A stretch of DNA of 64,000 bases from NCBI RefSeq assembly GCF_000027125.1, contig NC_017626.1; one strand, given 5' to 3'. This stretch comes from Escherichia coli 042. GTDB lineage: Bacteria; Pseudomonadota; Gammaproteobacteria; Enterobacterales; Enterobacteriaceae. Position 1 is the stretch's first letter. Each line of letters opens with the position of its first letter. Below are positions 39,001 to 48,000 of this stretch, in pieces. Position numbers: made by a program.

Positions 39001-42000
39001 ATGCGCGCCCGGAAGAGGGAGCTAACAAGCTGTCATTAGCACTGACCCTGATCCCTTCAGGTGTGAATTTTGATGCCGATGAAAACGATCCAGTGAAATT
39101 ACTGATTGTGCTGGCTGCAACCGACAGTACCAGCCACATTGAAGCGATTTCTCAACTCGCCAAGTTATTCGATAACGAAAAAGACATACAGGCCATTTTG
39201 ATGGCCAAAACGACGCAGGACATTTTGTCTGTTATTGCGCGCTATTAATCCAGAGGAACATTTATGAAAATTACAGTGGTTTGCGGTAACGGCTTAGGCA
39301 CCAGCCTGATGATGGAAATGAGCATTAAAAGCATTTTGAAGGATTTGTCCGTCAGCGCTGATGTTGATCACGTCGACCTGGGCTCCGCGAAAGGGACGCC
39401 GAGTGATATCTATGTCGGCACCAAAGACATTGCCGAGCAGTTAGTCGCGCAGTCTGTCGCAGGCAAAATCGTCGCACTGGAAAATATGATTGATAAGAAA
39501 GCCATGAGAGAACGTTTATCCGTGGTATTAAACGAATTAGGCGCACTGTAAGCTGGGGGCGATATGGATTTCTTTCGTTTTTTGATGAGCGATGTACTTT
39601 CCGAACCCGCAGTGCTGGTCGGTTTAATCGCCCTGATTGGCCTGATTGCACAGAAAAAACCGGTAACCGAATGCATTAAAGGTACCGTCAAGACCATTAT
39701 GGGGTTTGTGATTTTAGGCGCAGGGGCGGGTTTAGTTGTGTCGTCACTGGGTGACTTCGCAAACATTTTCCAGCATGCCTTTGGTATTCAGGGTGTAGTG
39801 CCGAACAATGAAGCCATTGTTTCCGTAGCGCAGAAAAGCTTCGGGAAAGAAATGGCGATGATTATGTTCTTTGCGATGGTTATCAACATTATGATTGCCC
39901 GTTTCACACCGTGGAAATTTATCTTCCTGACCGGTCATCACACGTTGTTTATGTCGATGATGGTAGCGGTAATTCTGTCAACAGCAGGCATGACCGGCAT
40001 TACGCTTATAGCCGTTGGCTCTTTGGTTGTTGGCGTGGCAATGGTCTTTTTCCCGGCTATTGCGCATCCGTACATGAAGAAAGTGACCGGTTCTGATGAC
40101 GTTGCCATCGGCCACTTCTCAACATTATCTTATGTATTGGCTGGTTTCATCGGCAGCAAGTTTGGTAATAAAGAGCACTCGACTGAAGACATGAATGTGC
40201 CGAAAAGTCTGCTGTTCTTGCGCGACACGCCGGTTGCTATCTCTTTTACCATGAGCATAATTTTCCTGGTGACGTGCCTGTTTGCGGGTGCAGATGCGGT
40301 GAAAGAGCTTAGCGGTGGTAAAAACTGGTTCATGTTCTCTATCATGCAATCCATTACCTTCGCAGCTGGCGTGTACATCATTCTGCAGGGTGTGCGCATG
40401 GTGATTGCGGAGATTGTCCCGGCATTCAAAGGTATTTCAGACAAGCTGGTTCCGAATGCCAGACCTGCTCTCGATTGCCCGGTCGTCTTCCCTTACGCAC
40501 CTAACGCTGTACTGGTTGGTTTCCTGAGTAGCTTTGCTGCAGGTTTAATCGGTATGTTCACGTTGTATCTGCTGAACATGATCGTGATTATTCCTGGTGT
40601 GGTGCCGCACTTCTTCGTAGGTGCAGCTGCAGGGGTATTCGGTAATGCAACGGGTGGACGTCGTGGTGCGATTTTGGGTGCCTTCGCTCAAGGCTTGCTT
40701 ATTACCTTCCTGCCAGTATTCTTATTGCCGGTGCTGGGTGATATTGGTTTTGCTAACACCACCTTCAGTGATGCTGACTTTGGCGCACTGGGTATTTTGT
40801 TAGGGATTATCGTTCGCTAATATTTTGATGACATTAATATCCTCCAGGATTTCAGGAACGTGGAGGATATTAATTCCTCTTATTTTCTCCATTTTTCTTT
40901 CTTCCAGTCAGGACTGCATCCGATTAATCGTAAGCGCTCCGAGAAGTACGTAGCGTAAGGATTATTTTACAGCTGAGAAGTTTCAGTGCAGCAGTTCATG
41001 CACACGGTTCGACGGCTAGTCATTGATCTTCATAATTACCTCGCGTAAAAAACGGGGTAAGGCCGCTCATCCCAGCGTCATCTCCACAGGTAATAATTCA
41101 ACGCCAATGCCAGAAGAGTTCGTTAACGGAAGACGCCGTGATATACGCCCTTTGATCAGCGAGAGCCTGAGCCATTTGAACAGAAGATTATCATTGATAT
41201 CATGCTCCCGGGCAATACGGGCAACAGAACCCCTTGGTTGTAAAGCCAGTGTAACCATTTGAAGTTTAAACTCATTTGAAAATGACCTGCGGGGTTCAGC
41301 TGATAATGTTTTTTGTTCCATAACAGGTGTCCACTAGTTGAAAAGGTGGGTACCTATGTTACCAATACTGGCTTAATGGCTACATACAGCAGTCGGTTTA
41401 CGCATACACTTTTATAGTGCACTCCGGCCTCATGAATATAACGGTGGATTACCGCCGAACGAATCGGAAAATAGATACTGGAAAAAAATGAAATTGTGAC
41501 CAGTTTTTGTTGACCACTACAAATAAATAAAAGAGTTGCAGTGCTTGCTCGGTAAGAAAACAATGGAAGTTGAGATCCTCAAAGAAGCTGTGGAGTACAC
41601 CACTCTACAGTAGTTGCGCAAATTTGGAGTGGACGATAATGTGATCGTCTATAAGGGCAACGCTATCATAGTCTTGTCCTGGCGGGTAAAAAAGCGCGCT
41701 TACCTTAACGATAAGCGCGCCGCTGTTCAGGCCTTGAGTGGTTATTCAATTCCTGTGGTGACTGTAAAAGTGCGCGTTTGCTGCGGTGCAACCTGAATCA
41801 GCGTGCCATTACGTTGCGCGGCAAGATACCCCTCAGGCCGACAGGTTGCAGGTAATGCAAAGGCGGCTACCTGTTGCTCTCCGTTATAAAGGATCCAGCG
41901 TGTCACATAATTTAGTTCAGCACTGTAGAAACGAGTAACAAACGTAGTGCCATCGGGAGAGATCATGCGAAACTCTGGCTGATCTGTATAAGCGTCCAGT

Positions 42001-45000: not shown

Positions 45001-48000
45001 CCATATTGGAACCAATAACTGCAATGTCCATTTCACTACCTCTTATAAACTTTCGCATAACAATGGTATTTAAATAACATTAGCATGTTACTTTTGCATC
45101 ATTTGTGACTGAGATCGCGATTAGCACATCAACCCGATGTTTATTTAATAGACTTCCAGTCTCATCACTCAGGCCAACACTATCTAATCATAAGCAACCT
45201 AACAAGATTAGTGCCCAAAACTCAGCAGCCTATACCCTTTTCATTTCAAAGGGGCGGTCGTATAGTATGGTAATGAAAACAATGTTTACTAACGCCAAAA
45301 TGTTATTTTTATAACATTCTTACGGAGAGAGAGTTGATGGAAACGAAGCAAAAAGAGCGTATCCGACGTTTGATGGAACTGCTTAAGAAAACCGACAGAA
45401 TCCATTTGAAAGACGCAGCGCGAATGCTGGAAGTTTCTGTAATGACTATTCGTCGCGATCTCCATCAGGAAGATGAACCTCTGCCACTGACCCTACTGGG
45501 TGGCTATATTGTAATGGTGAATAAACCCGCGCCATCCATGCCAGTAATCCATGACGTTCCAAAAAATCATCGTGATGACTTACCTATTGCAATTCTGGCT
45601 GCCGGAATGGTTAATGAAAATGATCTGATCTTCTTTGATAATGGCCAGGAGATACCACTCGTTATAAGCATGATCCCGGATGCAATCACCTTCACCGGCA
45701 TCTGTTACTCACATCGCGTCTTTGTTGCGTTGAATGAAAAGCCTAATGTAACAGCAATACTTTGTGGTGGTACGTATCGTGCCAGAAGTGATGCTTTTTA
45801 CGATGCCAGTAACTCTTCGCCATTAGACTCTCTCAATCCGCGAAAAATATTTATTTCCGCCAGCGGTGTGCATAATCACTTTGGCGTCAGCTGGTTTAAC
45901 CCTGAAGATCTTGCCACTAAGCGTAAAGCGATGAACCGTGGACTACGGAAAATTTTGCTCGCCCGCCACGCGTTGTTCGATGAAGTGGCCTCTGCCAGCC
46001 TCGCACCGATCTCTGCATTTGACGTTCTGATTAGCGATCGTCCGTTACCGGCAGATTATGTTACGCACTGCCAGAATGGTTCTGTAAAGATCATTACACC
46101 TGATTCAGAAGACGAATGACTTACTGAAAAAACACCACAATCTTGTTAAACATCGTCGGGTTGGACTGATTACGTTGCACTTTCACCACATATTCCAGCT
46201 TATCTATTTGGCTTATCACCTACTCCAGACGCTGGCCATCCTTGACCAGTAGCCAGATATGGCTTTTGTCGCAGTCCTGAATCGGCAGGCAGAGAATGTC
46301 TTCAACGTTAAGAGCGCGACGGGCAAAAGCCCACAAAGGTGAGTCATTACACCCGGATGGTAAACAGGCACTTCCTTGTTGTAGAAGCCGTTATATTGTC
46401 CATAATGTCTGGGTTTTTAATGCATACTGGGTAACAACCGGACGAATCTTCGAATATCACTGGCGCTGCCAGCCGGTTTGAATTCATCTCACAACCCTGC
46501 ATAGAGCGAATCTCCTGCCTGCACGTCACTCCACTCCATGGTATCAACTTCACACTCTTTATCTGCGGCTAGCTTCAGCCACCAGATAAGCATCGACTAT
46601 GAAAGATGAGCCATGACAACATAACGTTGGTAACGCTCTGACGCCTTAATGGAAGATGCCTGCCACCATAGGGAATGTAAACGACTGAAGTGTGGCCTTT
46701 AATGCCGTGAACGGCTCATGGTCTCCTGGCACGGTTGCCGCCCCAACCTGTAACAACATTCCACAGTACAATGTCTGTCAGAGTCAGAGCCTCCCATGCT
46801 TGTTGTAGTAACTCTACCAGTTACGAACATCCTTCCTCAAAATTGTTGTCATATCTCGCATGGAAGAAAAGATCCTGGCTAAGGAGCAACACACAACGTA
46901 TTGCGGAACTTGCATATTTTTCCTGTAACTAGTGTATTACCACATATGGTAATAGCTACCTGTGTGGTTTCGCTGGATAGCAAGGGGATTTATAGACTGG
47001 CCCCCTGAATCTCCAGACAACCAATATCACTTAAATAAGTGATAGTCTTAATACTAGTTTTTAGACTAGTCATTGGAGAGCAGATGATTGATGTCTTAGG
47101 ACCGGAGAAACGCAGACGGCGTACTACACAGGAAAAGATCGCTATTGTTCAGCAGAGTTTTGAACCGGGAATGACGGTCTCCCTTGTTGCCCGGCAACAC
47201 GGTGTGGCAGCCAGCCAGTTATTTCTCTGGCGCAAGCAATACCAGGAGGGAAGTCTTACTGCTGTGGCCGCAGGAGAGCAGGTCGTTCCTGCCTCTGAAC
47301 TTGCTGCTGCCATGAAGCAGATTAAAGAACTCCAGCGCCTGCTCGGCAAAAAAACGATGGAAAATGAACTCCTTAAAGAAGCCGTTGAATACGGGCGTGC
47401 AAAAAAGTGGATAGCGCACGCGCCCTTATTGCCCGGGGATGGGGAGTAAGCTTAGTCAGCCGTTGTCTCCGGGTGTCGCGTGCGCAGTTGCACGTAATTC
47501 TCAGACGAACCGATGACTGGAAAGATGGTCGCCGCAGCCGTCACTCAGATGATACGGATGTGCTTCTCCGTATACACCATGTTATCGGAGAGCTGCCCAC
47601 GTATGGTTATCGTCGGGTATGGGCGCTGCTTCGCAGACAGGCCGAACTTGATGGTATGCCTGCGATCAATGCCAAACGTGTTTACCGGATCATGCGACAG
47701 AATGCGCTGTTGCTTGAGCGAAAAACCGCTGTACCGCCATCGAAACGGGCACATACTGGCAAAGTGGCCGTGAAAGAAAGCAATCAACGATGGTGCTCTG
47801 ACGGGTTCGAGTTCCGCTGTGATAACGGAGAAAAACTGCGAGTCACGTTCGCGCTGGACTGCTGTGACCGTGAGGCACTGCACTGGGCAGTCACTACGGG
47901 CGGCTTCGACAGTGAAACAGTACAGGACGTCATGCTGGGAGCGGTGGAACGCCGCTTCGGCAACGAGCTTCCGGCGTCTCCAGTAGAGTGGCTGACGGAT

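Follow-up and report, generated by a model that had tools for sequence, protein, structure and literature searches.

Gene content and layout of the deo locus

The DNA analysed here, hereafter the window, is a stretch of 64,000 nucleotides (nt) from contig NC_017626.1 of Escherichia coli 042 (assembly GCF_000027125.1). Its part of interest consists of four genes, deoQ, deoK, deoP and deoX, which are surrounded by fragments of other genes and of insertion sequences (IS); the features are collected in Table 1. The listing of open reading frames (ORFs) and the family scans placed all four genes where the initial annotation had put them, with the regulator gene deoQ divergent from a kinase-permease-X group. 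The profile scans also agreed with the families that it had named, i.e. a DeoR-type regulator, a PfkB kinase, a FucP-like permease of the major facilitator superfamily (MFS) and a mutarotase-like protein of 337 amino acids (aa).

Table 1. Features of the deo locus and its borders (window positions; last column, nt identity of each gene to Salmonella enterica subsp. enterica, salamae and diarizonae and to Citrobacter amalonaticus)
Feature	Position	Strand	Description	Identity
IS66-family tnpC 3'-end fragment	40928-41048	-	90% identity; IS66-type terminus GTAAGCG from 40929	
IS682-like (IS66) left end and first ~85 tnpA codons	41065-41407	-	88.9% nt identity	
IS3-family scrap, 45 bp	41554-41598		97.8% identity to IS3-family transposase gene; abuts uhpA' edge	
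uhpA' remnant	41608-41741	-	~60 nt of uhpA 5' end and preceding spacer, including terminator	
deoX	41742-42755	-	337 aa; DUF4432; aldose-1-epimerase-like fold; proposed deoxyribose mutarotase	76%
deoP	42767-44083	-	438-aa MFS permease, fucose:H+ symporter (FHS) family; proposed deoxyribose importer	83-84%
deoK	44111-45031	-	306-aa PfkB-family putative deoxyribokinase; matches PfkB and TIGR02152; Salmonella DeoK orthologue	81-84%
Divergent control region	45032-45336		Operator-like palindromes, CRP-like site, candidate promoters	
Candidate deoK extended -10 element TGCTAATGT			Overlaps first palindrome	
Operator-like palindrome TGGTATTTAAATAACA	45064-45079		TGTTA-N6-TAACA type	
Operator-like palindrome TAACATTAGCATGTTA	45075-45090		Inverse; overlaps TGGTATTTAAATAACA	
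CRP-like site TGTGACTGAGATCGCG	45104-45119			
Candidate deoQ promoter TTTTCA-17-TATAGT	45238-45266		Second palindrome just downstream	
Weaker operator-like site	45290-45305			
Operator-like palindrome TGTTATTTTTATAACA	45301-45316			
deoQ	45337-46119	+	260-aa DeoR-family putative repressor; N-terminal helix-turn-helix and C-terminal DeoRC sensor domain	77-78%
ilvN' pseudogene	46121-46361	-	Last ~240 nt of ilvN; one frameshift, one internal stop	

The coordinates of deoP and deoX are those of the ORF listing, while the starts of the two divergent genes were refined. The kinase ORF, first listed as 44111-45058(-), was shortened to the ATG at 45031, which is preceded by AGAGG 8 nt upstream and is used by RefSeq and by all orthologues (N-terminus MDIAVIGS); the DeoR-family ORF, first listed as 45334-46119(+), was taken to begin with the ATG at 45337. 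As deoK, deoP and deoX are separated by gaps of only 11 and 27 bp and a strong hairpin plus T-run closes the group, we regard them as one operon; the hairpin, detected by a terminator scan, has a 12-bp stem and lies at 41693-41721(-), directly 3' of the deoX stop.

These genes almost certainly constitute the deoQ / deoK-deoP-deoX regulon for the utilisation of 2-deoxy-D-ribose (deoxyribose), carried by an E. coli genomic island at leuX. That the organisation matches the deoK operon, as had been supposed, is confirmed by gene order, orientation and families, which equal those of Salmonella deoQKPX, and by the proteins DeoQ, DeoK, DeoP and DeoX, each 100% identical to its counterpart in E. coli 55989. 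In two genomes of Salmonella salamae the layout is ilvB-ilvN, deoQ, deoK-deoP-deoX, uhpA-uhpB-uhpC, and deoQ is divergent from deoK-deoP-deoX in many other Enterobacterales loci too. The locus is the already described gene set, and its presence here adds nothing new. The deoQKPX regulon is described in PMC10926698, which cites Christensen 2003; similarly, PMC6452873 attributes the DeoK sequences of AL862, 55989, CFT073 and EC185 to Bernier-Febreau 2004. Possession of the deoK operon enables E. coli to use deoxyribose, and this operon together with vpe promotes colonisation of the mouse gut (PMC5382810, PMC6455142, PMC7545054).

At the nucleotide level the 5.2-kb stretch is 100% identical to the chromosomes of E. 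coli CV839-06, 55989 and the O104:H4 outbreak lineage, and 98.4% identical to that of CFT073, whose DeoK, DeoX and IS66 remnant bear the same RefSeq protein accessions as those of the window. When the locus was counted as present if at least 80% of 41600-46370 was covered, it occurred in 1593 of the 5426 complete E. coli genomes (29%), at about 98-100% identity. K-12 MG1655 matches only a 242-bp ilvN fragment of it, and the K-12 genes ilvN and uhpA lie 75 bp apart with nothing between them, in agreement with the claimed absence of the operon from K-12; wild-type MG1655 is unable to use deoxyribose for growth (PMC6452873).

The encoded proteins and the deoQ-deoK control region

Whether the kinase groups with DeoK or with RbsK had been named beforehand as the test of the locus. 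The window protein groups with DeoK: it is 95.8% identical to DeoK of S. salamae, encoded at the syntenic locus, versus 35.7% to K-12 RbsK, and members of its UniRef cluster are named 'Deoxyribokinase'. It fails PRK11142, the model of E. coli-type RbsK (252 bits, cut-off 341), and passes TIGR02152, the general ribokinase equivalog of NCBIfam (369 bits, cut-off 299.65), hence its RefSeq label rbsK. When 13 sequences of the DeoK clade, drawn from Enterobacterales, Aeromonas, Vibrio, Pasteurellaceae and Bacillus, were aligned, all of them showed the motif GSNMVD, as does the window protein, versus GSINAD in RbsK, and Met10 of DeoK occupies the position of Asn14 of RbsK. A role of this Met10 was reportedly described by Tourneux in 2000. 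The RbsK residue Asn14 binds ribose and was mutated when K-12 evolved to grow on deoxyribose (PMC6452873). Neither rbs transport genes, nor rbsDACB, nor fucAIKUR were found near the kinase gene in the ORF listing and the annotation of the neighbourhood. By these sequence comparisons, the window kinase is DeoK. Salmonella DeoK phosphorylates ribose as well and supports growth on ribose, and Salmonella strains without deoK do not grow on deoxyribose (PMC13432705); by analogy, the window DeoK probably also phosphorylates ribose. RbsK in turn, when overexpressed or mutated, can support growth on deoxyribose (PMC6452873, PMC13432705).

RefSeq, through its PGAP annotation, names deoK 'rbsK ribokinase' and deoP 'fucP L-fucose:H+ symporter' in thousands of genomes. 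Given the identities of the kinase to Salmonella DeoK and to K-12 RbsK, the names 'rbsK' and 'fucP' are over-general, and the annotation of deoK and deoP hides their known functions because the general TIGRFAM equivalogs are passed. Confusion in the RefSeq naming around these genes, which affects the builders of metabolic models, has been reported (PMC10926698).

DeoP behaves in the same manner as the kinase, scoring 323 bits on TIGR00885 (FucP-type MFS proteins; cut-off 280) and 284 bits, below the cut-off of 427, on PRK10133, which is specific for E. coli FucP; it shares 96.1% identity with S. salamae DeoP. DeoX, whose gene we take to be the one called deoM in later literature, scores 55.4 bits on PF14486 (DUF4432) and is 82.8% identical to S. 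salamae DeoX. A sequence search of the PDB with DeoX found no relative. An AlphaFold model built on 26 orthologues (mean predicted local distance difference test score, pLDDT, 73.9; predicted template modelling score, pTM, 0.78) was most similar, among PDB entries, to the putative aldose 1-epimerase 3ty1 (template modelling score, TM, 0.67), followed by GalM structures. Judging by this model, the description of DeoX as mutarotase-like holds at the level of the fold. DeoQ scores 230 bits on the DeoR model NF007961, just under its cut-off of 244, and is 83.8% identical to S. salamae DeoQ and 38% identical, over the full length, to K-12 DeoR.

Five matches to TGTTA-N6-TAACA with at most one mismatch occur in the window, and two of the five lie in the spacer between deoQ and deoK, which measures 305 bp here versus 324 bp in Salmonella. 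This spacer is enriched in the regulatory motifs. The spacer was compared among 47 loci, namely that of the window and 46 others, all from Enterobacterales as far as they are classified. Conservation among them is at least 90% in the palindromes, in the CRP-like site and in the TATAGT element, and the middle of the spacer is not conserved. Counted from the CRP-like site, TGCTAATGT would sit where a class II CRP-dependent promoter needs its -10 element, and the first palindrome would cover this candidate deoK -10 element together with the start region. We infer from this arrangement that DeoQ may bind the operator-like sites and that CRP may control deoKPX. According to the scheme that Christensen et al. 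are said to have published in 2003, the divergent promoters are accompanied by three DeoQ operators and are repressed by DeoQ and DeoR, and catabolite repression reportedly acts on deoKPX only. The predicted spacer motifs agree with this scheme.

Module borders, origin and island surroundings

The window contains the gene of tRNA-Leu(CAA), leuX, at 25438-25522, followed by an integrase gene, which bears out the placement of the locus inside the leuX island. The left neighbour of deo is the vpe operon, with a gene for a LacI-type regulator (37503-38534(-)) and genes for the IIA, IIB and IIC components of a phosphotransferase system (PTS; 38805-40820(+)). The vpe locus as a whole (37503-40820) encodes an ascorbate-family PTS, is a published fitness/virulence locus and is found with deoK in CFT073, 55989 and NCTC 86.

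Between vpe and deo lie the two IS66 pieces. The match at 40928-41048 coincides with the 3'-terminal part of an IS66 transposase gene that is truncated, and the 88.9% match spans the 5' part of IS682 tnpA and 86 bp upstream of it. The 84-aa ORF at 41067-41321(-) corresponds to the N-terminal part of IS66 TnpA, with 84 of about 141 codons left, and its scores on NF038385 (64.8 bits) and NF047595 (58 bits) are both under the cut-offs. A complete IS66 element, with tnpA-tnpB-tnpC and both inverted repeats, is not present at 40928-41407, where only the tnpA/left-end piece and a 120-bp piece of tnpC are present. As tnpB and tnpC are missing, the remnant is non-functional, and by their sequence the two pieces seem to be parts of a single, dead IS66-type element that suffered an internal deletion.

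The orfA remnant pointed out in the initial annotation is therefore real, although not, as had been stated, immediately adjacent to the operon: about 420 bp separate the ORF from the deoX stop, and this gap holds the IS3-family scrap, the uhpA 5' fragment and the operon terminator. The remnant had also been considered old, and CFT073, 55989 and CV839-06 indeed have the same protein accession at the corresponding position; the accompanying proposal of a rearrangement scar is reasonable, albeit not proven. As a capture border the IS66 remnant was rejected, given that the border at 41608 abuts the IS3-family scrap and the remnant ends about 200 bp further out. It is the joint between vpe and deo, inherited with the module, and not the capture border itself.

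Homology to the Salmonella and K-12 chromosomes starts at 41608 and ends at 46361. The uhpA' side is 81-84% identical to Salmonella and 85.5-85.8% to the uhpA 5' end and ilvN-uhpA spacer of K-12; the other stub, ilvN', is annotated as a pseudogene in RefSeq. To its right, about 630 bp of DNA specific to the island separate it from an IS2 that starts at 46992. Other E. coli genomes match an unannotated part of this DNA (46816-46976, about 160 bp) at up to 11 places each, with about 94% identity; this part may be a short repetitive or mobile sequence.

Window positions 41671-41744, just downstream of deoX, are the homologue of the 75-bp spacer between ilvN and uhpA in K-12, terminator hairpin included; what distinguishes deo+ from deo- chromosomes is therefore a clean insertion or deletion immediately behind the stop codon of ilvN. 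In Salmonella, C. amalonaticus, Raoultella, Enterobacter sp., Silvania and others, deoQKPX is flanked by ilvN and uhpA sequence, with homology that spans 41608-46361, and in Leclercia it is so flanked at the uhpA side. Since this arrangement occurs in Salmonella, Citrobacter, Raoultella and others, the interval between ilvN and uhpA is considered the ancestral position of deoQKPX.

It remains to consider from where the module entered the island. S. enterica has been cited as the origin of the E. coli deoK module (PMC5382810). K-12 ilvBN is 82-84% identical to the Salmonella and Citrobacter genomes used for the gene comparison in Table 1, so that the distance of the deo genes from Salmonella is about that of core genes. 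The ilvN' stub, on the other hand, is 90.1% identical to K-12 ilvN versus 75-79% to Salmonella and Citrobacter ilvN, and at third codon positions it diverges from K-12 at 13 of 81 sites (16%), compared with 37 of 81 (46%) between K-12 and Salmonella. A scan of 100,044 GTDB species representatives with a degenerate DeoK pattern, in which strain-variable loci are invisible, yielded 58 loci and no close donor, i.e. none above about 84% nt identity. The greater closeness of ilvN' to E. coli and the 76-84% identity of the deo genes to any sampled species argue against a recent transfer from Salmonella. By these identities, a donor that belongs to the Escherichia lineage or is near to it seems to fit better than a recent transfer from S. 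enterica.

Among the E. coli contexts inspected, no native ilvN-uhpA copy of deoQKPX was found; all are of the island type, and the same ilvN' pseudogene is present in each, even in one that lacks both vpe and the IS66 remnant, which points to a single capture event. We lean slightly towards a scenario in which the module, together with its ilvN and uhpA stubs, was captured once from an Escherichia-lineage relative with the ancestral ilvN-deoQKPX-uhpA arrangement, E. coli having lost the genes and regained them via islands. Such an Escherichia-like origin, to which the ilvN' and uhpA' scars both point by being closer to the E. coli than to the Salmonella genes, would be a modest refinement of the known picture, and it is the only point of this analysis that may go beyond the literature.

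Several other elements were noted in the island. Early in the island, past the integrase gene, lies a DNA phosphorothioation module, SspB-SspC-SspD (31624-36671(-); PADLOC scores of 381, 1451 and 466 bits, respectively), in which no sspA was seen. It adjoins a gene pair, 27244-29628 and 29631-31475 (+), annotated by RefSeq as 'sensor histidine kinase' and 'hypothetical', the first of which has a weak REase_II match; the pair may be a restriction partner of the Ssp module. By correspondence with the annotation of CV839-06, a TetR-family regulator gene at about 51500-54120 is split by IS100 (IS21 family), and a cluster of lpxM(msbB2), virK, capU and a shf-type polysaccharide deacetylase gene occupies about 59177-63074(-). 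This cluster is better known from virulence plasmids of enteroaggregative E. coli and Shigella, and here it is located in a chromosomal leuX island; virK has an internal stop in CV839-06.

Proposed function and comparison with known systems

deoC is a core gene of E. coli. We propose that deoxyribose would be imported by DeoP, acting as an MFS proton symporter, that DeoX, by virtue of its mutarotase fold, would interconvert the anomeric or ring forms of the sugar, and that DeoK would phosphorylate it to deoxyribose-5-phosphate, which DeoC, a core-genome aldolase encoded outside the window, would split into glyceraldehyde-3-phosphate and acetaldehyde (deoK/deoC pathway, PMC6365646). DeoQ would bind the TGTTA-N6-TAACA palindromes, one of which overlaps the candidate deoK -10 element and start, and would repress the divergent deoKPX and deoQ promoters until relieved by deoxyribose, while the upstream CRP-like site would put deoKPX under catabolite control. 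The transport substrate, the enzyme activities, the occupancy of the operators, the inducer and the growth phenotype are those that we infer from the literature or from the sequence alone.

Some observations weigh against the assignment of the locus to deoxyribose. The kinase exceeds the cut-off of the TIGR02152 ribokinase equivalog, the gene is called rbsK by RefSeq, and ribose, too, is phosphorylated by DeoK (PMC13432705). The DeoX model is only moderately confident, with residues 72-115 below a pLDDT of 50, and the gene needed to complete the pathway, deoC, is located beyond the window. The RefSeq names even prompt a different view of the locus, as a second cluster for ribose or a fucose-like sugar with deoxyribose not being the physiological substrate, and they do follow the two general models, TIGR02152 and TIGR00885, passed by DeoK and DeoP; the growth on ribose supported by Salmonella DeoK (PMC13432705) would suit this view too. 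Nevertheless, DeoK and DeoP both fail the models specific for RbsK and FucP (PRK11142 and PRK10133), the kinase is only distantly related to K-12 RbsK, rbsDACB and fucAIKUR are absent from the neighbourhood, and the locus is orthologous to and syntenic with Salmonella deoQKPX. Moreover, the position of the ribose-contacting Asn14 of RbsK is occupied by Met in the whole DeoK clade, and deoxyribose does not support the growth of strains that lack deoK (PMC13432705). On the grounds of model cut-offs, identity, context, synteny and Met10 we rejected a ribose or fucose-like substrate as extremely improbable.

It could also be imagined that the locus, although intact, is a silent passenger, not expressed or not useful in this strain, for instance owing to the island context or the IS neighbours. 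The IS debris around it (IS66 and IS3 scraps, IS2, ISEc23) is in keeping with such a fate, which is nonetheless very unlikely: no damage is seen in the four ORFs, in the terminator or anywhere in the control region, all of which are identical to their counterparts in 55989, DeoK and DeoP have kept 96% protein identity to Salmonella at about 81-83% nt identity, which indicates strong purifying selection, and 1593 of the 5426 complete genomes have kept the locus, with 98-100% identity. The deoxyribose regulon of the window thus appears intact and, judging from its genes and control region, is most likely functional. Its relevance lies in the fact that it is a well-documented fitness determinant, which enables the use of deoxyribose from DNA and has a published link to competitiveness in the mouse gut, and that the automatic names rbsK, fucP and aldose 1-epimerase family hide this known function.

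The closest known counterpart is the deoK operon of pathogenic E. coli (AL862, 55989 and CFT073; Bernier-Febreau et al. 2004, Martinez-Jehanne et al. 2009), with which the window shares the linkage to vpe, the IS66 TnpA remnant and the ilvN' scar. The island is inserted at leuX in the window, in 55989 and in O104:H4, whereas it is found at pheV in AL862 and in the 'LAC' island of Shiga toxin-producing E. coli negative for the locus of enterocyte effacement (PMC7545054, PMC6455142). Compared with 55989, the window differs to the right of ilvN', where it has IS2' and ISEc23 in the opposite orientation. Salmonella deoQKPX has the same genes in the same order and orientation and with the same sizes (306, 438, 337 and 260/261 aa), and its spacer motifs and terminator are conserved in the window. 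However, it is chromosomal and situated between intact ilvN and uhpA, whereas the window copy is carried by a mobile island with gene fragments on its flanks and shows only 76-84% nt identity per gene.

The ribose system of K-12 is a more distant relative. RbsK and the window DeoK have in common the PfkB fold, the ribokinase subfamily and the catalytic motifs GAGD and NPAPA, and differ in most of their residues (35.7% identity), including Asn14 of RbsK versus Met in DeoK. The rbsDACBKR operon relies on an ATP-binding cassette transporter and a LacI-type regulator instead of the MFS permease and DeoR-type regulator of the deo locus, and its genomic context is unlike that of the latter.

On the regulatory side, the operators of E. 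coli DeoR are TGTTAGAA-TTCTAACA, and the spacer palindromes share the TGTTA-N6-TAACA architecture of this operator. Several operator-like sites are spread over about 240 bp in the deoQ-deoK spacer, much as the sites of the deo operon are. The presumed inducer of DeoQ is deoxyribose, that of DeoR being deoxyribose-5-phosphate, and DeoQ differs from DeoR in being a separate paralogue encoded beside its own target.

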